A stretch of DNA of 32,000 bases, taken from NCBI RefSeq assembly GCF_000007225.1, contig NC_003364.1, positions 2,040,001 through 2,072,000 of the forward strand. The letters run 5' to 3'. This document shows positions 968 to 28,667 of the stretch, piece after piece. Position numbers and translations under genes: made by a program. Below the pieces are notes generated by a model. That model was not told the DNA's origin. It was given only the letters and a program-made list of their open reading frames with translations, and did not search any database. Numbering within the stretch: position 1 is the first letter of the stretch; each line of letters starts with the position of its first letter. The DNA comes from Pyrobaculum aerophilum str. IM2 (GTDB lineage: Archaea; Thermoproteota; Thermoprotei; Thermoproteales; Thermoproteaceae).

Positions 968-2358
968 TGGGTCATTGCGTCTGCTATTTCGCTGATGTCA
1001 AACGGCGGGGTGAAGACCCCGGTTATCCTCCCCTGTGATATAGTGTATATTTTATCCGCCTTCTCCACGGCCTCTTCCACGTCCTCAACGCTTAAAATCA
1101 CGCCGCCAGACACAGTCTCTCTCACAATGGCGTAGAATTTCTCCGCGGTCTCCACATCGAGTCCCCGCGTGGGGTAAGAGGCTATCAGGATATAAGGCTT
1201 TCTGTACAACACCTCCCGGGCTAGGAGGAGTTTCTGCTGATTGCCTCCAGAGAGAGAAGCGGCCTTCGCCCCTGGGCTGGGGAAGTCGATATCTAACTCC
1301 TTCCTGGCCTCTTCTAACACCTCTAGGCACTTGTCTGAACACCTAATTCTAAAATTATCAATGACAGAGAGGTCTTTTGCCAAGGCGCGTCCGCGGTCTT
1401 CTGGGAGATAGGCCACGCCTTTTTTCAAGAAATAAGTATAGGGCTTGCCTGTCACGTCCTCGCCGTTTATAATAATCCGGCCCCCCTGGGGTTTTTTAAA
1501 ACCAGACAGCAATTCCATCAGCTCCTCCTGTCCGTTGCCCGCGACGCCGAGGACGGCCACCACCTCGCTCCTCCTAAGCTCTATATTTACATCAGTTACC
1601 TTAATTCCTCGCAAGCCCTCTGCTCGGCATATAATGTCGCCGGGGTTGTAAGACTTATAAACGCGGCGTTGTACAACGCCTTGGAACATTGCTGTTAACA
1701 ACTCCCCCTCTTCAAAGGGCTTTTCGTACGTCCCCACTTTCTCGCCTCTCCTCAACACAGTGATTCTATCTGCTATTTCAATTGCCTCTTTTATTTTATG
1801 CGTGACGAAGACAACAGCCTTCCCCATTTTTGCCAAATTCCTTATAATATTTAACAATGCCTTAACTTCACTGGGACTTAGTAGAGAGGTGGGCTCGTCC
1901 ATAAGTATTAACTCGCTGTTTCGGGCGAGCGCCTTCACTATTTCTATTCTTTGTCTCTCGCCCACAGTCAGTTCATAGACGTATTTCTCCAGGGGGAGAT
2001 CAACCCCTAGAGACTTGCCCATTTCCACTGCCTTAGACACATCGATCCCGGCGAGTTTTAAATTCTCCCTTACAGTTAAGGTGTCTATTAAGGCGAAGTG
2101 TTGTGAAATTAAAGAAATGCCCAGCCTCGCCGCGTGACTAGGCGAGTTTATAGAAGTCTTACGGCCCCTTATGTATATCTCCCCAGCGTCTGGCTTATAA
2201 ACGCCGTAGAGAATAGAAATAAGCGTTGACTTCCCCGCCCCGTTCTCTCCTAACAAGCCGTGGATCTCGCCTATTTTAACGTCAAAATCAACTCCGTTTA
2301 GGGCAGTTACGCCGGGAAAAAACTTCTTTATCCCAACGGCCCTGAGGAAAAACTCCAT
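964..2358 (-). CDS. ABC transporter ATP-binding protein, tandem (two-domain) ATPase
   Basis: Walker A GENGAGKST near the N-terminus, Walker B LILMDEPTS, and a second-half signature LSGGNQQK. 464 aa is the size of a duplicated ABC ATPase of BMP/sugar systems. It starts 1 nt after the SBP stop. Confidence 0.9.
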   Translation of the reverse strand: MEFFLRAVGIKKFFPGVTALNGVDFDVKIGEIHGLLGENGAGKSTLISILYGVYKPDAGEIYIRGRKTSINSPSHAARLGISLISQHFALIDTLTVRENLKLAGIDVSKAVEMGKSLGVDLPLEKYVYELTVGERQRIEIVKALARNSELILMDEPTSLLSPSEVKALLNIIRNLAKMGKAVVFVTHKIKEAIEIADRITVLRRGEKVGTYEKPFEEGELLTAMFQGVVQRRVYKSYNPGDIICRAEGLRGIKVTDVNIELRRSEVVAVLGVAGNGQEELMELLSGFKKPQGGRIIINGEDVTGKPYTYFLKKGVAYLPEDRGRALAKDLSVIDNFRIRCSDKCLEVLEEARKELDIDFPSPGAKAASLSGGNQQKLLLAREVLYRKPYILIASYPTRGLDVETAEKFYAIVRETVSGGVILSVEDVEEAVEKADKIYTISQGRITGVFTPPFDISEIADAMTQ

Positions 2359-9659: not shown

Positions 9660-10970
9660 GTGAATCAACAATTTATAAATCGCGAACGGGAGCTCGCCTG
9701 GCTGGAAGAGCTGTATAAAAAGCCGGGGGCGCAACTAGTCGTCATATACGGCAGGCGGCGGATAGGCGAGACGGAGCTTTAAAAAATTCGCCGAGGGTAA
9801 AAAGGCCGTTTATTTCTACTGCGAGAGGTTTAGCTGATAATTTATCTAGGCTAGCCGCGGCTTTTGCCGACGGCCTCGGAATTGATTACCTCAGAGAAAT
9901 TAGTTTTACAGACTGGGAGCCCTTATTTAAAGCGTTAGCGCCTTATTTGAAGGGGAGGGTTGTGGTGATCTTTGACGAATTTCCCTATTTGTTAGACGTA
10001 GATCCAGCCGTTGCTTCTAAGGGATGAGTTGTTATCAAAAACAGAAGTCTTTTTAGTACTCTGCGGCTCTAGCGTGGCCGTAATGGAAGGCGAAATTCTG
10101 AGCTACAAGTCGCCATTATACGGCAGGAGGACGGGGTCGTGGGAAGTGGGGGAGATGCCTCTTCACAGCATTAAACACTTCTACCCACGCCCCTTTGAGG
10201 AGGTGTTGATGTTATACGCAGTTGTTGGAGGCGTTCCCCTCTATCTCAAAAAGTTTAATCCCAATAAGCCTTTTCTTGATAACTTAAAGGCGGAATTCTT
10301 CACGAAAGGAGGGTTTCTTTACGACGAGGCGGAATTCCTCTTGAGGCAAGAGCTCAGAGAGCCGAGTAATTACATGTTGATACTCCGGGCTATTGCAGAC
10401 GGCAGGAGGAAGCTGGGGGAAATCGCCAACGAGACTGGTCTGGACAAGGCGGCAGTGTCGCGGTACTTAGCCACGTTAGAGCTTTTAGACCTAGTCTCAT
10501 ACGAGTTGCCAGTCTTAGAGCCGCCGAAGGCGCGGAAGAGGCTTTACTACATTTCCGATAATTATATGGCATTTTTAAATTCGTATACCCCCACAAGTCG
10601 CTTGTAGAACAAGGCCTCGGGGAGCGCGCAGTTGTAGAGACGTGGAGACGCTTCGGGGATTATATGTCGTTTGTGTTTGAAAGAGTTGTTGCAAAAGTCG
10701 TCCAGGCAATGTACCCAAGTTACAAGGTGGGCAGACAGTGGGGCAAGAGAGGAGGACAAGCCTATGACATTGACGTCTTGGCTATACGTTGAGGCCAAGT
10801 GGTCAGATAATGTCAACTGCGGCGGGGAAAAGGAAAGGCTTAAAGAAAAGACTCTGGCGGAGGCGGAGCCCGAGGCCTTTTATATTTTTGCCAAATCTTT
10901 TAATAAGAAGGAAGAGGGGTGTTTCGACTTGGCGGATTTAGAGAGATTAATAGAGCTCTACAAGCTTTAA
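9660..10970 (+). pseudogene. decayed archaeal ATPase (Arch_ATPase/AAA + DUF234 family)
   Basis: Family-typical sequence is recoverable only by hopping between frames. The pieces are: VNQQFINRERELAWLEELYKKPGAQLVVIYGRRRIGETEL* (Walker A Lys replaced by Glu, stop at 9780-9782), KKFAEGKKAVYFYCERFS*, DNLSRLAAAFADGLGIDYLREISFTDWEPLFKALAPYLKGRVVVIFDEFPYLLDVDPAVASKG*, the 198-aa track ORF 10011-10607, FFKFVYPHKSL...GQAYDIDVLAIR*, and VEAKWSDN...ELYKL*. Confidence 0.85.
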
Positions 10971-17211: not shown

Positions 17212-18000
17212 GCATTTGGCGATGTAATTTAAAATAGAGAGCACTATAAACACTGCCTCCTCTGTCCTAATGGTCTCGACGCCCTGCCCCGGGGCGAAGT
17301 TTATAAGCTCTCCGGGAGGCTCCAGCCCCGCCTCTCTGAATATCTCGTCAACGCCTTTACGCGGCCCGCCGAACACTACTAACGTCTTTTTCCCAATTTT
17401 TGGCTTGGCCTCGCAGATCGATTTGCCCTCCTTTCCAGTTAATATTACTGTGTCAAAGCCCTCGGATAGGTTTTGAAGAGGCCTTACGTCGATTTTATAT
17501 CCCCAGTAGTCCGGCGGCGCGCCTCTATAAACCGCCGCCCTGTAAGTGTCTGGCCTGGAGGTTGTCCCCTCAATTCTCACGAGCAGGCGAGTTCCAATGG
17601 GGTAGGGCTTTGGCACCTTGGCGTATTTCCCGCCGCCTATGTAAATAAGGGAGTAGTAACCATCCCACCTTTCCACAATTCCCTCGCGAATTTCGCCTAT
17701 GCGGGGCTCTACAGGCACTGTGTGACTGGGGATTTTAAGCGGGGGTAGCAAGCCGGCGAGCTTCAGCCTATTATCTATTTTGTATACCTTTTTTCGAAGA
17801 TACGGAGGCGTGACTAAATACTCAAGAACAGTCTTAGCGAAGTCTATGTCCTCTCTGCGGGGAGTGCCGTAGTGGTATATAATTATGTACTCAGCTTTAA
17901 AGATGGCTGCGGCCCTTGCCAAGTAGCCGAGTTTGCGGACTTTCCCAGCTTCGTCTGGGATCTCTGAAAGAAAGTCGTGAGGTATTGCGATTGAAAACAC
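17188..18000 (-). CDS. DUF171/SPOUT-class putative RNA methyltransferase (COG2106-like)
   Basis: The pattern SIAIP..L......KVRKLGYLARAAAIFKAEYIIIY, TPPYLRK, LLPPLKIPSH, a central OB-like insert and a C-terminal ...ETIRTEEAV resembles archaeal DUF171 proteins. GTG start directly abuts the stop of the small upstream ORF. Confidence 0.65.
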   Translation of the reverse strand: MFSIAIPHDFLSEIPDEAGKVRKLGYLARAAAIFKAEYIIIYHYGTPRREDIDFAKTVLEYLVTPPYLRKKVYKIDNRLKLAGLLPPLKIPSHTVPVEPRIGEIREGIVERWDGYYSLIYIGGGKYAKVPKPYPIGTRLLVRIEGTTSRPDTYRAAVYRGAPPDYWGYKIDVRPLQNLSEGFDTVILTGKEGKSICEAKPKIGKKTLVVFGGPRKGVDEIFREAGLEPPGELINFAPGQGVETIRTEEAVFIVLSILNYIAKCSYKREAL

Positions 18001-21271: not shown

Positions 21272-22555
21272 ATGGCCCATATAAGTGGGGTTTATATCAA
21301 CAGCGCATTTCTTGAAAATACGTTATATACAATAAAACGTGGAATTGAACTATCAGGTTTGCCTGTGGAATTCTACGAGATCATCACAAAGCCTAAAAGA
21401 ATACACATTGTGTATATCCCTGTTAAAATGGACAGCGGCAGAATTGAAGTGTTTGAGGGCTATAGAGTTCAGCATAATGACGCCCTCGGGCCTTTTAAAG
21501 GCGGAATTCGTTTTCACCCGGAGGTCACTCTAGCTGACGACGTCGCCTTGGCTATTCTCATGACGCTTAAAAACAGCCTCGCGGGCTTGCCCTACGGCGG
21601 GGCTAAGGGCGCGGTTAGAGTAGACCCCAAGAGGCTCTCCCAGAGAGAGCTCGAGGAGTTAAGCCGGGGCTACGCCAGGGCAATCGCCCCGCTAATAGGC
21701 GATTTGGTGGACATACCGGCGCCAGACGTGGGGACTAACTCGCAGATAATGGCCTGGATGGTAGACGAGTATTCAAAAATAGCGGGGAGAAACGCCCCCG
21801 CCGTGTTCACCTCAAAGCCGCCGGAGCTTTGGGGAAACCCAGTGAGGGAATACGCCACGGGCTTTGGAGTGGCAGTTGTCGCTAGAGAAATGGCCAAAAG
21901 GCTGTGGGACGGAATAGAGGGGAAGACAGTGGCTGTACAAGGCTTAGGCAATGTGGGCAGGTGGACGGCGTATTGGCTGGCAAAACTCGGCGCCAAGGTT
22001 GTAGCCGTATCGGATATAAACGGCGTGGCGTATAAAAAAGAGGGGTTGAATGTAGATATTATCGCTAATAATAGAGGACTCGGCGGCCCCGCCCTACTAG
22101 AGGCGTTTGTCTCTAAAGACGGGGCTCAATATGTGAAAGATCCAGACGCTATACTCGCTGTTGATGTGGATATTTTCATTCCAGCGGCTATTGAGAACGT
22201 GATTAGAAGCGACAACGCCGGCCGAGTTAAGGCTAGGCTTGTGGTTGAGGGCGCTAACGGCCCGACAACGCCAGAGGCCGAGCGGGTTTTATACCAGAGG
22301 GGAGTTGTAGTAGTGCCCGACATATTGGCCAACGCAGGCGGCGTGATTATGTCTTATTTAGAGTGGGTGGAAAACCTCCAGTGGCTCTCGTGGGACGAGG
22401 AGGAGACTAGGAAGAGACTAGAGGCAATAATGGTTAACAACGTGGCGAGAGTATACCAGAGGTGGCAAAAAGAAAAATGGACAATGAGAGACGCGGCAAT
22501 AGTCACGGCGCTGGAGAGAATATACAAGGCAATGAAATTAAGAGGGTGGATTTAA
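21272..22555 (+). CDS. gdhA: glutamate dehydrogenase
   Basis: Contains [11 protein letters not shown] and [11 protein letters not shown] (catalytic Lys region), plus a Rossmann GLGNVG motif. Confidence 0.95.
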
Positions 22556-22590
22556 TATTTCCATTTTTAAACTGTTTTCTGTTATTTCAA
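22556..22590 (+). terminator. oligo-T termination region after gdhA
   Basis: T5 (22563-22567) and T4 (22574-22577) runs lie directly after the stop, in a convergent gap. Confidence 0.3.
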
Positions 22591-22650
22591 TAATTGTATT
22601 ATTAGGTATCGGCTCCCACGGCCCCTCGTCAAGAGGCTCTGAAGTTATTA

Positions 22651-23246
22651 TCACTTTTCCATTGTCTCGTCGGAGAACTGGTATAAATGGGGATCTTCAT
22701 AGGCTCTATAGGTAACGAAATATGTAGTTAAGTTCTCAAGATTAACTACGGCGAAGTTAATAAGGGGCTCCTCGGGATCTATGTAATCTCTTGTTAATAA
22801 CACTGCTTTACGTATAGACTCCTTATCGCCTCCTAGTTTTACAATAATTTTTAAGAATAATTCTGTATCCGTGGAACCTCCTATTGTAGGATTTACGTCG
22901 AGATTTTTAGCCACTTCAGCCAGTTTCCTCTTGTTAAATGTGCCGTTGTGTACTATGGCGTATGGGCCGTAAATTATGGGATGCGTATTAGAAAGCGAGA
23001 CTCCCCCCACAGATGCCAGCCGGGAGTGTATAAGGTAAAGATCATATCCCTTGGGCAGATTGATCTCGTCCTCCCATATCGCTTTAACCGATTTGTACAC
23101 CCCGTAGTGGCCGCGCCGGGCGTATAATACGCCCCAGCCTGATCCGTGGCTCCATCCCTTTGTTCTGTCTTTTTTGAAACTGTAATAAAAGCTGAGATAA
23201 TGTCTTGCGGGGGATCTCCCCCGCGGAGGAAAAGAATTCTACACAT
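22651..23246 (-). pseudogene. class-II (Ntn) glutamine amidotransferase, interrupted by a -1 frameshift at an A-AAA-AAG heptamer (pseudogene, sequencing error or recoding)
   Basis: The ATG at 23246 overlaps the glnA stop (TAATG) and opens MCRILFLRGG...ITVSKK. The fold continues in the -1 frame as DRTKGWSHGSGWGVLY...HSRLAS..SNTHP..AIVHNGTF down to 22651. The track shows the two pieces as 22974-23279 and 22651-23100. Confidence 0.8.
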
Positions 23247-24541
23247 TAGGCTTCTTCTAAGTATTTTTCGTATTCCCATTTAGTTATTTTATTCCATGTG
23301 GTTTCCCAGCTTCCCTCGGCCGTTATGTACTCTTCCCACTCCCTCTCTTTTAGCCTTAAGTAGGCCTCTAGGAATTGCCCGGGTAGCGGCGTGCCGTCTC
23401 TGGCCATTTTAAGGGCCTCGCCTAAATTGGGGGGAGTCTCCCTGGCCTCTTCCAGCTCATACGCCACTTCGGCCACTGGGGGCGGGGGCTCTCTCTTTTT
23501 TTCAATTCCCGCTAGGGCTGAGAGGATAATTACTGCAAAGGCCAAGTAGGGATTTGCAGAGGGGTCTGGGTGTCTGTACTCAAGCCTATTTATCCTCCCG
23601 CCGTAGTAGGGAATTCTGACCATGACAGAGCGGTTTCCAAGTCCCCACACAACTCTCGTGGGGGCCTCGTGGTGTGGGACGAGCCTTTTGTAGCTGTTCA
23701 CAGTGGGCGCGACGAAGGCGCTGTTGCGCAAGGCGTTTTCTAAAACCCCCGCCACTGCCCACTTGAGCTCTTGCGTCGGCTCGCCTCTAGAGGCGAAGAG
23801 ATTAACGCCGTCTTTCCAAAAACTGACGTGTACGTGCATGCCAGAGCCGTTAACTCCCCAGAAGGGCTTCGGCATGAAAGTGGCGGTGAGGCCCCTCCTC
23901 TTGGCCACGGCCTTTGCCATTATTTTAAAGACTAGGATCTGGTCGGCCACTTGCACTGGGTCTCCCGCCGGGATGTTCACCTCGTACTGGCCCGGGGCGA
24001 CTTCGTGATGCGTCTTAGATAGGCCAATGCCAGAGGCCTCTAAATGGCCTAGGATTTCCTCAACCGCCGCGTAGGAATCCCCGTGGAGATAGCCGTCGAA
24101 ATAAACGCCGCTGTCCGCAGGGGCTGGCGGAACGCCTCTCACTAGAAAGAACTCCACCTCAGCCCCCACCACTGGCGCATACCCTCTAGACTTGGCGTAG
24201 TCCGCCGCCTGTCTTAACACGTTTCTCGGGTCCATTGGGTGGGGCTTGCCGCCGTCCACAGTGTTTGTAAAGACTATGGCAGTCTTCCCCCCGTTCCAGC
24301 TCTCCACGTATACTGCGTTTAAATCGGGGACGGCCACTAAATCGCTTTTATTCACAGTGGTATAAGCCGGTATAGAAGAGCCGTCGTAAGCAACGCCGTC
24401 TAAAAAGGCCTCTCTAGCCGCCTCTATTGGCAAGACCTCAGCCCTAGGCCTGCCGAATATATCCACAACGATAAACTTCACTAACTTAACCCCAGCCCCT
24501 CTCAACACCCTCCAAACAGCCAAACCATCTGGCATAGCCAC
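23246..24541 (-). CDS. glnA: glutamine synthetase, type I
   Basis: Typical GS-I sequence (FVVDIFG..., ...HHEVAPGQYE..., NGSGMHVHVS, ...NSYKRLVP...). Start is GTG 24541 or ATG 24535 (MPDG...). Confidence 0.95.
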   Translation of the reverse strand: MAMPDGLAVWRVLRGAGVKLVKFIVVDIFGRPRAEVLPIEAAREAFLDGVAYDGSSIPAYTTVNKSDLVAVPDLNAVYVESWNGGKTAIVFTNTVDGGKPHPMDPRNVLRQAADYAKSRGYAPVVGAEVEFFLVRGVPPAPADSGVYFDGYLHGDSYAAVEEILGHLEASGIGLSKTHHEVAPGQYEVNIPAGDPVQVADQILVFKIMAKAVAKRRGLTATFMPKPFWGVNGSGMHVHVSFWKDGVNLFASRGEPTQELKWAVAGVLENALRNSAFVAPTVNSYKRLVPHHEAPTRVVWGLGNRSVMVRIPYYGGRINRLEYRHPDPSANPYLAFAVIILSALAGIEKKREPPPPVAEVAYELEEARETPPNLGEALKMARDGTPLPGQFLEAYLRLKEREWEEYITAEGSWETTWNKITKWEYEKYLEEA

Positions 24542-24566: not shown

Positions 24567-24835
24567 TCGAAAAAAATATTCTATATAGCACTCCAACGTC
24601 TCAAAACTTTGTACCATAATATCAGGGTAATAAAAAAGCAAATACAAGGAATATAGGGGTTTTTAGGTATAAAGAGAAAGCGGTCGTAGGGAGGTTTTTA
24701 TCAAATCATTGTGAATATTATATAAATTAACATAGAGGTTGGCTACATGATTTTTACAACAGAACTTTTAGCTTTTAAAATATTACTCATTTTGTGTAGG
24801 AGTGGAAAATTTTCTAATTTATCAGTCTCTCTAAC

Positions 24836-24862
24836 TTAATATATAGTGCATAGGTTTAAATA
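24836..24862 (+). promoter_or_regulatory. two TATA-like boxes upstream of the glutamate synthase genes
   Basis: TTAATATATA (24836-24845) lies 17-26 nt before ATG 24862. TTTAAATA (24855-24862) lies 21-28 nt before in-frame GTG 24883. Confidence 0.45.
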
Positions 24863-26601
24863 TGGAGTTTGTTTGCTATGCTGTGTGCGGCATATTTGGC
24901 ATATATAGTCTTGGCGGGGAGAATATATACGCCGGTACTATACTAGAGGGCCTAGTTGCCATGAGAGAGCGGGGAACGCCTCACGGCGCAGGCGTGGCGC
25001 TTTATAGGGACTGGGGCCGTGAAGTTATCAAATTTTTTTCGCATAAACCAGTTTCGCATAACGTCCCCCTCCCTGGCGGGATATATGATAACATAGTTGA
25101 ACACGTGGAAAAGGTACCCGACGACGCCTTTATCTATATGCGTAGCAGATGGCTCGATGTTTATAAAATTGTAGGCTGGCCTGACGATATTATCAAGATT
25201 TACGATATTAGCCAGTTGAAAAGTCCCGTATGGATAGGGCATACAAGATATCCCACAAATAGCCCCGGCTGGTATCCCTATCAGTCTCACCCCTTCTCAG
25301 TGGGCGACGTGGCCATTGTGCACAACGGCGACTTAAGCTCCTACGGTTCTAATGTAAACCTCTTGAAATACAAATTTGGCTATTCTAAATTCAGCGGTAC
25401 TGACAGCGAAGTAATAGCACATCTCCTATGGGAGTTGTATAAAGCGTACGGCGTTGAAGACGCGGTGTTAGAGCTTCTTTACGGCAGGAGGGAGAGGTGG
25501 GCCAGGCTCGACGGGCCATATGCCGTGGCGTTTATAATTGGGGGGCCGCGCCCTGTCTTTGGAGCTTTTGTAGACACGCAACACTTCAGACCGCTTTATG
25601 TGGGTTTAGACGGGAGGAATTTGTACATCGCCAGTGAGGCCATGGCCATAAAGAGCGTGGCGAAAGACGCCGAGGTTTGGGCTATGAGAAGCGGAGAATA
25701 CATCCTCGCGGAAGGCGGCGAGATCTGGGGGAATTATAAGAAAAGGAACGTTAGCTTATTGACGCCGCCTCCGCCCTCTGATGTCCTCGATGCTTCCAAT
25801 TACGGCGTGATAGAACTTGCCGATATTGTGAGAAAAGAGCTGGAGAGGCGCGATGTTGTAAATGTGGTGAATGTTATGGGTCATCGCTACTTGGGCAACG
25901 GGATGTACAGGGGAGTTCTCAACGCGTGGGGAGTGGTGGGAAATGCCTCTGCTAACGTAATGAGCGGGGGGGTGTTTAACATCTACGGCGACGCTCAAGA
26001 CGATCTCGGCGACGCTATGAACGATGGAGTTATAGCTGTATATGGCAGTGTTGGAGACGCTGTTGGCCAGGCTAAGAGGGGTGGGGAGATTTACATATAC
26101 GGCAACGCGGGGACTAGAGCTGCTATACAACACAGAGGGGGAGTTCTCGTAATAGGCGGCTCTGCGGGGGACTACCTCGGGGAGTACATGGGAGGCGGCG
26201 TGGTGATAGTTTTGAGAAAGACGTGGGATGAGGAAATTGGTTGGAAAATTGGGAGCGGAATGGTCGGCGGAGTGATTTTTATCAGAGGCGAGGTGCCGAG
26301 GGAAAAAATCGGCTATGGGTTTGACTTAAAAAGGCTTAGGAGATATTTAGAATTATTATATAGAGAGGGCGAAATTAGCAGAGAATTTTACGAAAGCGCA
26401 GCTAAAAATCCCGAACTCGTCGCGAAATTAGACGGCCGCGCTGAGCTTTTCGCCATTACTCACCATGTGGAGATAAGAGAATTATCTGAAGAAGAGGAGT
26501 CGCTTCTAAAACCCTATATCACAAGATTTAATAATTTGTTTAATACGGACATTAAGATAAGTGGAGAGACTTTCACTATTATAAAACCGTTGAAAATATG
26601 A
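24862..26601 (+). CDS. glutamate synthase-like fusion: class-II amidotransferase domain + GXGXG (GltB C-terminal beta-helix) domain
   Basis: N-terminal ...VCGIFGIY, HTRYPTN and VHNGDL are Ntn amidotransferase motifs. Residues of about 330-470 carry repeated G-x-G-x-G units (YGDAQDDLGDAMNDGVIAVYGSVGDAVGQAKRGGEIYIYGNAG...). ATGA overlap with the next gene. The true start may be GTG 24883 (M-C-G-I-F-G). Confidence 0.85.
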   Translation: MEFVCYAVCGIFGIYSLGGENIYAGTILEGLVAMRERGTPHGAGVALYRDWGREVIKFFSHKPVSHNVPLPGGIYDNIVEHVEKVPDDAFIYMRSRWLDVYKIVGWPDDIIKIYDISQLKSPVWIGHTRYPTNSPGWYPYQSHPFSVGDVAIVHNGDLSSYGSNVNLLKYKFGYSKFSGTDSEVIAHLLWELYKAYGVEDAVLELLYGRRERWARLDGPYAVAFIIGGPRPVFGAFVDTQHFRPLYVGLDGRNLYIASEAMAIKSVAKDAEVWAMRSGEYILAEGGEIWGNYKKRNVSLLTPPPPSDVLDASNYGVIELADIVRKELERRDVVNVVNVMGHRYLGNGMYRGVLNAWGVVGNASANVMSGGVFNIYGDAQDDLGDAMNDGVIAVYGSVGDAVGQAKRGGEIYIYGNAGTRAAIQHRGGVLVIGGSAGDYLGEYMGGGVVIVLRKTWDEEIGWKIGSGMVGGVIFIRGEVPREKIGYGFDLKRLRRYLELLYREGEISREFYESAAKNPELVAKLDGRAELFAITHHVEIRELSEEEESLLKPYITRFNNLFNTDIKISGETFTIIKPLKI

Positions 26602-28667
26602 TAGGGAGGTCAGTAGTAGTAAAAAGCTATATAGAAGTCGCGCGTCATGTAGTACCAGAGTTCTGGGAGCCCAGCAGAGTTTTGGCTATTAGAAAAATGG
26701 CGCAGTCCTCAATGCCTGTAATTGATAGATTTGAGCCGGAGAGATATGGCAGACTGCTTGACAGAATGGCGTTTAAAGACTTAAGGCGGCGGGATTTAGA
26801 AGAGGCTTATGCGAAGGCTGATAAAATAGATATTGATATTGGAATTAAACTAGGCGGGGCAGAGCTTCAAATGCCTATATACGTGGGGGATATGTCCTTC
26901 GGGGCTTTGAGCGGTAACCCGAATATAGCAATTGCCAAAGCCGTCACTGAGGCGGGCGCCGTTGCCGGCATTGGAGAGGGCGGGCTACATCCCGAAGTGG
27001 CGAAATATAGAAACATAGTAGTGCAGTGGGCCTCTGCGCGTTTCGGCATGGATATGAATTTGTTAACGGCAGGCATCGCCGTTAATATAAAAATAGGGCA
27101 GGGGGCTAAGCCAGGTATTGGGGGGCATTTGCCGGGGAGGAAAGTTGTGGACATTATTGCCAAGTTAAGAAAAATACCAGTGGGAAGTGAGGCCATCTCT
27201 CCAGCACCCCATCACGATATTTATTCTATTGAGGACTTGGCGCAGAGAGTGAAGGCATTGCGCGATTTGACGAAAAAGCCAATTTTAGTAAAAGTGGCTG
27301 CGGTCAATAAAATACACTACGTATCTGTTGGAGTAGCCAGGTCTACGGCAAATGGGATAATAATTGACGGCGCGGGGGCGGGGACTGGGGCGACTCCAAT
27401 AGTGGCCAGGGACCACTTAGGAATTCCAATAGATATCGCAGTGCCAGTGGTAGATCAATGGATTAGAAAAGACGGGACTAGGGATGGATTTTTAATGATC
27501 GCCGGCGGCATGTTATATTCTCCTTTAGACGTGGCTAAGATAATTGCCCTCGGCGCCGATATGGCCAATTTAGGGACAGCGGCGTTGTTGGCAATGGGCT
27601 GTATAATGTGCCACGCTTGTCATACTGGGGGTTGCCCGACGGCTCTTACAAATATGATAGGATCGGGGAAGGAGTTAGACATCGAATGGGGCTCGGCTCT
27701 ATTACGTAATTACCTTCTGGCCGTATCCCGCGGGTTAAAAGCTGTGTTATACGCTTTGGGTATGTCGAGTATAAAAGAGCTTGTGGGACGGAGAGATTTT
27801 TTGCAAATACGCCACGTAGACGAGGAATTAGCCTCAGTCATAGGCGTGGAGCTGGCAGAGCCCGGCGAGACTGCTTGGCTTGATAAAAACCGGCGTGTGA
27901 TTTTCCCAAGGGAGTATTACGAAGGTGTTCATATTCCCATTATCGGCATGGGAGGCGTGGTGCCGGGGTATACCACTCCCGCGAGACGGCTACTCGACGT
28001 GTTGAGAATTGAGGCGGTACAAGTGACGAGGCCCTCCGTTGATCCGTATAGAGAAGACGTGGACGTATCTGTGAAATTCGGCCGCCTCGTGTTAGACACG
28101 CCGGTTGTGGTGCCCGCCATAGACGAAGCGGCTGAAGACGCTGCTTATATAATGGGCGCCGCCGTGTTGGGGGATAACTGTAAATATGAGGAATACTGTC
28201 TTGGTTCATTTAAACCGGCAATTACGCCGCCAGGAGAAATCGATATAGACTCAGGCGTAATTATTATAGACGAAAGGATGGGCGGAGAAAAGCCACTGGA
28301 GGCGGCAGTGGCCAGGCTCCATAGAAAATTAATGGAAACAGGCCGTAGGCGAGAGACTTTAATAGTCGCCGTAGGCGACCTATACAACGGAGCCGACATC
28401 TATAAACTAGCAGCACTAGGGGCCGATTTAGTGGCGCCGTTATCGGCTTTTCAACAAGTTGTGCAGAGGGTGAAAGATTTGCCGAAGGGAGAGAGGCGGC
28501 GGAGATATGAGAATTTAATAGCAAATTTGACAGCGGAGTTAAAAGTGTTAATGGGCGCAGGCGGCGTCACGAGTTATATGCACACTCTAGTAGGCAATTT
28601 AGACTTGTTGAGATCTCTAGATGGCAGAGTTGGGGAAATTTTAGGCGTTGAAATCGCCGGGAGGTAG
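26598..28667 (+). CDS. glutamate synthase FMN-binding (GltB domain 2-type) subunit with extra C-terminal domain
   Basis: Contains GDMSFGALS, IGQGAKPGIGGHLPGRKV, ISPAPHHDIYSIEDL and the Fe-S Cys motif GCIMCHACHTGGCP. An additional region of about 250-290 aa follows the barrel. Confidence 0.85.
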   Translation: MIGRSVVVKSYIEVARHVVPEFWEPSRVLAIRKMAQSSMPVIDRFEPERYGRLLDRMAFKDLRRRDLEEAYAKADKIDIDIGIKLGGAELQMPIYVGDMSFGALSGNPNIAIAKAVTEAGAVAGIGEGGLHPEVAKYRNIVVQWASARFGMDMNLLTAGIAVNIKIGQGAKPGIGGHLPGRKVVDIIAKLRKIPVGSEAISPAPHHDIYSIEDLAQRVKALRDLTKKPILVKVAAVNKIHYVSVGVARSTANGIIIDGAGAGTGATPIVARDHLGIPIDIAVPVVDQWIRKDGTRDGFLMIAGGMLYSPLDVAKIIALGADMANLGTAALLAMGCIMCHACHTGGCPTALTNMIGSGKELDIEWGSALLRNYLLAVSRGLKAVLYALGMSSIKELVGRRDFLQIRHVDEELASVIGVELAEPGETAWLDKNRRVIFPREYYEGVHIPIIGMGGVVPGYTTPARRLLDVLRIEAVQVTRPSVDPYREDVDVSVKFGRLVLDTPVVVPAIDEAAEDAAYIMGAAVLGDNCKYEEYCLGSFKPAITPPGEIDIDSGVIIIDERMGGEKPLEAAVARLHRKLMETGRRRETLIVAVGDLYNGADIYKLAALGADLVAPLSAFQQVVQRVKDLPKGERRRRYENLIANLTAELKVLMGAGGVTSYMHTLVGNLDLLRSLDGRVGEILGVEIAGR

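Follow-up and report, generated by a model that had tools for sequence, protein, structure and literature searches.

Organization of the locus

The window, a stretch of 32,000 nucleotides from the genome of Pyrobaculum aerophilum str. IM2, contains a region of nitrogen assimilation genes in which glnA lies upstream of a disrupted amidotransferase gene, gdhA is convergent with it, and glutamate-synthase-type genes are divergent (Table 1). The TAA stop codon of glnA (23248..23246) overlaps the ATG at 23246 in the sequence TAATG, as a preliminary description of this DNA had noted and as the ORF coordinates confirm. From this ATG, the 0-frame encodes MCRILFLRGGDPPQDIISAFITVSKK and then runs into unrelated sequence up to a stop at 22974, giving 90 aa, and the -1 frame carries HSRLAS…NTHP…HNGT down to 22651; both frames had been described before and were reproduced by translation. 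The switch point had been placed at A-AAA-AAG (23175..23169). This position holds, both by the phasing of the heptamer, which is read as TCA AAA AAG in the 0-frame at 23177..23169, and by a gap-free alignment with orthologues.

The preliminary description was thus right about a split gene and about its first break, but the 198-aa shifted product that it proposed is not complete, as a second break had been missed. Homologous reading leaves the -1 frame after EDPH187 and resumes in the third frame, down to 22538. The complete amidotransferase comprises 236 aa in three frame segments of 26, 161 and 49 residues.

The tail of the 0-frame showed no homology, and a record look-up gave no gene call for the 90-aa product. 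The tail of the -1 frame closes an annotated 149-aa ORF (AAL64917.1 / WP_011009384.1, Pyrobaculum aerophilum). Several peptides distinguish the possible products: GWSHGSGWGVLYAR, encoded in the -1 frame upstream of an internal GTG at 23100, is obtainable only by frameshifting, DGATDQAGAYYTPGAATTGCTNR marks the unshifted 0-frame product, and VIITSEPLDEGPWEPIPNNTIIEITENSLK is an example of a third-frame peptide in IM2. Tryptic digestion cuts the region of the first junction (…ITVSK/K/DR/TK…) into tiny peptides.

Table 1 Features of the glnA–amidotransferase–gdhA locus, with positions in the window.
Feature	Position	Strand	Evidence
glnA (glutamine synthetase, 431 aa)	23246..24541	-	ORF; Gln-synt_N/Gln-synt_C on the identical gene in L001/L034
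Segment A, frame 0, M1-K26, MCRILFLRGGDPPQDIISAFITVSKK, including the predicted Cys2 nucleophile	23169..23246	-	gap-free alignment with orthologue N-termini
First frame break, A6 run (23175..23170) plus G, read A-AAA-AAG	23169..23175	-	
Segment B, -1 frame, D27-H187, DRTKGWSHGSGWG … HSRLASVG … NTHP … HNGT … TDTE … YRAYEDPH	22687..23169	-	
Second frame break (-1), T3 run in ccccaTTTatacc	22685..22687	-	
Segment C, third frame (further -1), F188-S236 and stop, 49 residues	22538..22687	-	
Frame-0 dead-end tail TEQRDGATDQ…LIRIP-stop, completing the 90-aa unshifted product	22974..23168	-	
Frame -1 dead-end tail LYQFSDETMEK-stop, 11 unrelated residues after the second break	22651..22684	-	
gdhA (glutamate dehydrogenase, 427 aa), convergent with the amidotransferase gene	21272..22555	+	ELFV_dehydrog domains on the identical gene in L002/L010

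The 3' ends of the reconstructed amidotransferase gene and of gdhA overlap by 18 nt (22538..22555). The divergent genes, at 24862..28667 on the plus strand, encode a 579-aa fusion of class II amidotransferase and GXGXG domains followed by a 689-aa glutamate-synthase FMN protein, in which the FMN (Glu_synthase) domain is accompanied by part of the central domain. The two ORFs share a 4-nt overlap and represent an unusual domain split of glutamate synthase.

The repaired product is predicted to be a class II amidotransferase

The product of the repaired gene is predicted to be a stand-alone class II (Ntn, EgtC/YafJ-like) glutamine amidotransferase or amidohydrolase with Cys2 as the nucleophile. 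Cysteine directly follows the initiator methionine (MCRIL at 23246), and the M-C-R start is kept in the orthologues. In profile comparisons, the repaired protein scored 33.6 bits against PF13522 GATase_6, above the cutoff of 27, 19.9 bits against PF13230 GATase_4, under the cutoff of 23, and 51.5 bits against TIGR03442 EgtC, far under the equivalog cutoff of 218.65. A profile search of the PDB returned 3mdn (E = 4e-9), 1te5, EgtC and GlmS.

An AlphaFold model of the repaired 236-aa sequence (pLDDT 90.2, pTM 0.89) has the four-layer alpha-beta-beta-alpha arrangement of Ntn proteins. The best Foldseek matches of the model are the GlmS glutaminase domain, EgtC, PurF and 3mdn, with TM scores of 0.71–0.75 and E values of about 1e-12. 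Segment B corresponds to the catalytic core of the Ntn fold. Segment C is also predicted to belong to the fold: it forms four beta-strands in the model (residues 191–195, 198–202, 218–222 and 227–231, pLDDT 94–97) and aligns with the SEPL…W region of 3mdn. The earlier assignment to glnA-coupled class II (Ntn) amidotransferases with a Cys2 nucleophile is therefore upheld by profile, model, fold and orthologue evidence.

The repaired protein has the N-terminal cysteine and the fold in common with EgtC/YafJ-type amidotransferases (4zfj/4zfk/4zfl, 3mdn, 1te5) and with the GlmS glutaminase domain (1xff). It differs from the solved EgtC/YafJ-type structures in sequence, with about 17% identity and a score below the EgtC equivalog cutoff, and, unlike those proteins, its family is Thermoproteaceae-specific and coupled to glnA. 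By its sequence and predicted fold the locus is a member of the amidotransferase family, but as a disrupted gene, with two frame breaks in the window interrupting the ORF.

Orthologues in other Thermoproteaceae are intact

In ten Pyrobaculum and Thermoproteus species genomes (L011–L020) and at an additional locus, L038, the orthologue is a single intact ORF of 230–236 aa; the P. islandicum protein P0014 is intact as well. At the position of the first break the orthologues encode S-R-R/K-D-R-T with the codons AGG/CGA/CGT/AGA/AAG, and neither an A run nor a heptamer is present there in any of the 11 orthologous loci. The alignment across the junction, with FITVSKK and DRTKGWSHGSGWG of P. aerophilum placed against FVEISRR DRTxGxSHGSGWG of the orthologues, is free of gaps, so the first break lies inside the A run itself and is not a chance coincidence with it. 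The preliminary description had proposed examining orthologues for a conserved split and heptamer as a check on recoding; both are conserved among the P. aerophilum sequences, which are at least 99.2% identical, but in none of the diverged orthologues, an outcome that speaks against recoding.

Across the second break the orthologues continue in one frame, with CAC/CAT followed by TTC/TAC/TTT, and the encoded sequence reads …E(D/E)PH(F/Y)(V/I)PV…(A/S)SEPL…W…N(G/D)….

Two short proteins were considered as broken orthologues. P0016 (197 aa) was rejected, since its locus, L038, is intact from MCRIF… onward and the length reflects a conservative gene call. The N-terminus of P0003 (215 aa) corresponds, at the protein level, to an internal methionine of the GTG-started L012/P0002 type, and its shortness looks like a start-call artefact.

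The gene lies immediately downstream of glnA in eight of the ten other species, and the stop/start overlap is kept with the motif T(A/G)(A/G)TGTG. Overlaps of the TAATG, TGATG or TAGTG form between glnA and the small class II amidotransferase gene occur in L011, L013, L014, L016–L020 and L038; in L012 and L015 the amidotransferase gene has a different context. Judged from these arrangements, glnA and the amidotransferase gene appear to be a conserved, translationally coupled pair across Pyrobaculum and Thermoproteus, whose function appears undescribed.

A second break truncates the shifted product

With a single -1 shift at the first break, translation gives 198 aa, in which 11 junk residues stand in place of the last 49 of the complete protein. 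The site of the second break, CAT-TTA, is not of the X-XXY-YYZ type and is non-slippery, so a single -1 shift cannot yield a complete enzyme in this genome. According to the model, the truncated product would be missing part of the core sheet, and it would presumably fail to fold.

Variation among P. aerophilum strains

To place the breaks among strains, we compared the window with 13 other P. aerophilum contigs that encode the 149-aa ORF and come from metagenomes and MAGs of at least eight projects. The contigs are 99.2–100% identical to the window, and several represent different strains, as they differ from it by common SNPs. The A6 run was found in all 13 independently assembled contigs and the T3 run in 12; the remaining contig, L010 (GCA_036754085.1), has T4. 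Both breaks are thus real in the DNA. Homopolymer sequencing error had been one reading in the preliminary description. An error of sequencing or assembly that makes an intact gene look broken in the reference would fit the location of both breaks in homopolymer runs, but A6 in the 13 independent assemblies rules it out at the level of consensus assemblies, and the recurrence of A6 and T3 in Illumina-type metagenome and MAG assemblies of differing strains from at least eight projects makes the chance of such an error negligible.

The L010 sequence reads through T4 to NPPS and encodes a 187-aa RefSeq protein (WP_333638718.1, P0021) that includes EDPHFIPVLRRDNGKVIITSEPLD… in one frame. In this allele, and in no other of the sampled sequences, one -1 shift suffices for the full-length protein. 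T4, directly observed in L010, is the ancestral state, and the A-run break is older than the T-run break. No intact P. aerophilum-type protein (>90% identity) was present among 5.8 billion protein clusters. A metagenome DNA pattern scan allowing A6–A8 revealed no A7 allele; its sole match, FWWM01127805.1, is the A6 contig L007.

Among the 14 sequences, seven codons are variable, four of them with synonymous changes and three with replacements, a ratio that is the same as that of the neighbouring genes (25:13). Seven sites are too few to weigh selection; total diversity is below the neutral expectation. The replacements are L7P and two singletons, N87K at an invariant column and R28G at a column occupied by R or K, column conservation being judged on 13–14 orthologues. 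R28G is carried by L010, directly after the site of the first break. The two radical replacements at conserved columns, together with the second frameshift, may point to relaxed constraint.

The broken locus (22538..23245) is less diverged between strains than its intact flanking genes, as seen in L002 and L010. Over 690 nt, L010 and the window differ by 2 SNPs, where the third-codon-position rate of the flanks predicts 12.9 (P = 2e-4); for L002 this rate predicts 7.1 SNPs, and 2 are seen. Because the SNPs are fewer than expected, the broken gene has not been drifting neutrally for the whole divergence time. The adjacent 155 nt at the 3' end of glnA contain 5 SNPs, and this mosaic pattern of divergence in the region hints at recombination or a recent sweep. 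To explain the low divergence it suffices that the A6 allele arose recently and then spread by recombination or a sweep; the low divergence fits such an origin but also residual selection.

Contig L034 (JGI sample 3300014786) has, at about 1282..1353, an indel or a rearranged intergenic stretch that corresponds to 24748..24835 of the window. It lies between glnA and the divergent GATase-GXGXG gene, in what is likely the promoter region for both.

Search for a recoding signal

The heptamer stands in 0-frame phasing exactly at the frame junction. Signals that accompany programmed frameshifting were searched for around it. The 79 nt downstream of the heptamer fold at z = -1.05, no more stably than shuffled sequences, and their only stem lies about 30 nt away; a 49-nt window gave z = -0.82, and the second break site z = +0.1. 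The Rfam scan detected no frameshift element at either break at E ≤ 1, and no GGAGG- or GGTGA-like Shine-Dalgarno motif is present within 20 nt upstream of the heptamer. The earlier remark that no convincing stimulatory hairpin follows the site is borne out by the folding z-scores and the Rfam scan.

The only significant hairpin is a perfect 7-bp G+C hairpin, cgcggggGAGAuccccgc, located in the N-terminal coding segment at 23207..23224 on the minus strand, 31 nt upstream of the heptamer (z = -2.7 relative to shuffled sequences). A one-residue insertion found only in P. aerophilum (GGDPP) falls at the same place.

Sites of the X-XXY-YYZ type are common in the window, where 42 occur in frame in 26 kb of intact ORFs. 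Among them are A-AAA-AAG sites within two intact genes, glnA (at 23501) and a gene for an RNA methyltransferase (at 17794). A literature search found no paper on the amidotransferase locus.

Comparison with known frameshift sites

The heptamer is identical to that of bacterial dnaX. In dnaX, the shift gives a shorter product (gamma) from an intact long ORF, the site is assisted by an upstream SD-like element and a downstream hairpin, and it is conserved among enterobacteria. At the P. aerophilum locus, in contrast, the shift would have to repair a broken ORF, no stimulators were found by the folding, motif and Rfam searches, and the site lacks conservation among the orthologues.

The closer parallel is fucA1 of Sulfolobus (Saccharolobus) solfataricus, also a crenarchaeal gene with a short N-terminal ORF and a longer -1 ORF, in which the break likewise falls exactly on an in-phase, A6-containing X-XXY-YYZ heptamer (A-AAA-AAT). 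In fucA1 a single shift was experimentally shown to give a complete, active enzyme (PMC1616953, PMC8211752), and a review describes a putative stem-loop and tandem rare codons flanking the site. In P. aerophilum, by comparison, no such structure was found by folding, and the second break truncates the product. The site fails three defining features of a programmed frameshift, namely a stimulator, conservation and a complete trans-frame product, and should not be filed as one.

A probable young pseudogene formed in homopolymer runs

We conclude that the locus is, most probably, a young pseudogene that arose when homopolymer runs lost bases by slippage. The frame is broken in a mononucleotide run where the orthologues are intact, and there is more than one disabling lesion, with the A6 and T3 breaks in the window and N87K and R28G in other strains. 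Of the readings left open by the preliminary description, a genuine and recent deletion in the A run is the one that gains support.

The following order of events is proposed. In Thermoproteaceae the gene normally forms one ORF of about 232 aa with translational coupling to glnA. In the P. aerophilum lineage, the Arg-Arg/Lys codons may have changed to AAA-AAA after a TCA codon, giving an A7 run; an ancestral A7 (TCA-AAA-AAA-GAC) is the state that we infer for P. aerophilum because the alignment at the first junction is gap-free. Loss of one base from this run by replication slippage (A7 to A6) would then have broken the frame species-wide, and the TCA-AAA-AAG left behind would automatically read as the A-AAA-AAG heptamer. 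Later, in the lineage of the window, a one-base deletion from T4 to T3 would have put the last 49 residues out of frame. As an A7-to-A6 deletion necessarily leaves the heptamer, the coincidence of break and heptamer would be a by-product of the mutation and no designed signal. The inactivating event was presumably recent, and no useful amount of active enzyme is likely to be made.

As a general rule, the homonucleotide repeats that are prone to slippage are also those in which indels appear (Rockah-Shmuel et al. 2013, PMC3812077). A one-base indel has split a gene in a single archaeal species before: the chitinase gene PF1233/PF1234 of Pyrococcus furiosus, which relatives carry as a single ORF, is described as split by a one-nucleotide insertion (PMC3575233). 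In the present case, by contrast, the affected homopolymer resembles a slippery site, and a second indel has followed.

Another disrupted gene is present in the window. An archaeal ATPase gene at about 9660..10970 on the plus strand, encoding the C-terminal part of PF01637 ATPase_2 and an HTH domain, is split into at least five frame segments, with the first break at a T3A6 run in cTTTAAAAAAtt (A6 at 9781..9786). This gene is apparently a frameshift pseudogene in which decay has gone much further than in the amidotransferase gene, and its presence indicates that decay through frameshifts is nothing unusual in this genome. The P. aerophilum genome paper reportedly describes unstable G/C mononucleotide tracts and a possible mutator phenotype.

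Several observations weigh against the pseudogene interpretation. A6 is fixed in every sampled strain, with the heptamer phased as in dnaX and fucA1; the L010 gene needs just one -1 shift for full length; divergence between strains is lower at the locus than in its neighbours; and four of seven polymorphisms are synonymous, a neighbour-like proportion, though the numbers are small.

One alternative is leaky, non-programmed bypass, in which A6 is a real mutation and -1 slippage of the ribosome, or slippage of RNA polymerase on the A run, restores the frame in a few per cent of the products. T4-type strains such as L010 would in that case keep producing a little full-length enzyme, with the gene under weak selection, and the second deletion would have ended that in the IM2-type lineage. 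The correct phasing of the heptamer, the otherwise intact L010 allele, the SNP density under the neutral expectation, and the retention of the Cys2 start and of the coupling to glnA all favour such bypass. Indels in homonucleotide repeats are often bypassed (PMC3812077), and -1 frameshifting on A-AAA-AAT has been shown experimentally in Sulfolobus fucA1 (PMC1616953, PMC8211752). Set against this are the lack of a stimulatory element at the site in the folding and Rfam analyses, R28G of L010 right after the site in a column otherwise held by R or K in the orthologues, and the second break in 12 of the 13 contigs; a recent origin in a visibly mosaic region explains the low diversity equally well. 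Moreover, AAG is usually read in archaea by a tRNA-Lys(CUU) of its own, and slippage on this codon should therefore be less easy than in E. coli. We therefore regard leaky bypass as unlikely.

It is quite improbable that the site is a functional, P. aerophilum-specific -1 site, whether programmed or a selected 'savior' slippage, that keeps the glnA-coupled amidotransferase low and tunable. If it were, the state seen in L010 and other T4-type strains would be the functional one, the strain of the window would have lost it secondarily, and fucA1 would be joined by a second archaeal -1 case, one that works at about 100 °C with no stimulator downstream.

Programmed -1 ribosomal frameshifting of the dnaX/fucA1 type, selected to set the ratio of amidotransferase to GlnA or to give two products (90 aa and full length), would account for a canonical A-AAA-AAG exactly at the frame junction, for its presence in all 13 sampled P. 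aerophilum sequences and for the low divergence at the locus. This recoding reading, also raised in the preliminary description, is left unsupported and is highly improbable, as the heptamer is limited to one species with <1% internal divergence, all 11 orthologues being intact without it, and as no downstream hairpin or pseudoknot, upstream SD-like motif or Rfam element was found. The second frameshift in 12 of 13 strains argues strongly against it: this non-slippery break leaves the trans-frame product incomplete in the genome of the window. The 0-frame tail, which would end the shorter of the two products, has no homologues.

There is scarcely any likelihood that the A run serves as a phase-variation switch, with A6 (off) and A7 (on) alternating inside populations. 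Indels are especially frequent in homopolymer runs, and the T3/T4 polymorphism demonstrates that run-length changes segregate in P. aerophilum, but no A7 allele appeared in the 13 contigs, the protein database or the metagenome pattern scan, and an independent second frameshift is not expected in a gene that is regularly switched back on.

Implications

When an A7 run over Lys-Lys codons loses one base, A-AAA-AAG remains in phase. Ordinary homopolymer indels are hence expected to place a slippery heptamer exactly at the break, and such a heptamer is by itself no evidence of recoding. The three checks that settled the present case, all of them inexpensive, were the search for further downstream breaks, the comparison with orthologues and the comparison of strains. 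For annotation, two entries, the 149-aa 'hypothetical protein' (AAL64917.1 / WP_011009384.1) and a 187-aa 'class II glutamine amidotransferase' (WP_333638718.1), each represent only a part of the same 236-aa gene. The value of the locus lies mostly in this correction and in its use as a cautionary example. For the organism, the pseudogene interpretation means that P. aerophilum has lost a putative glnA-coupled amidohydrolase that is otherwise conserved in Thermoproteaceae.
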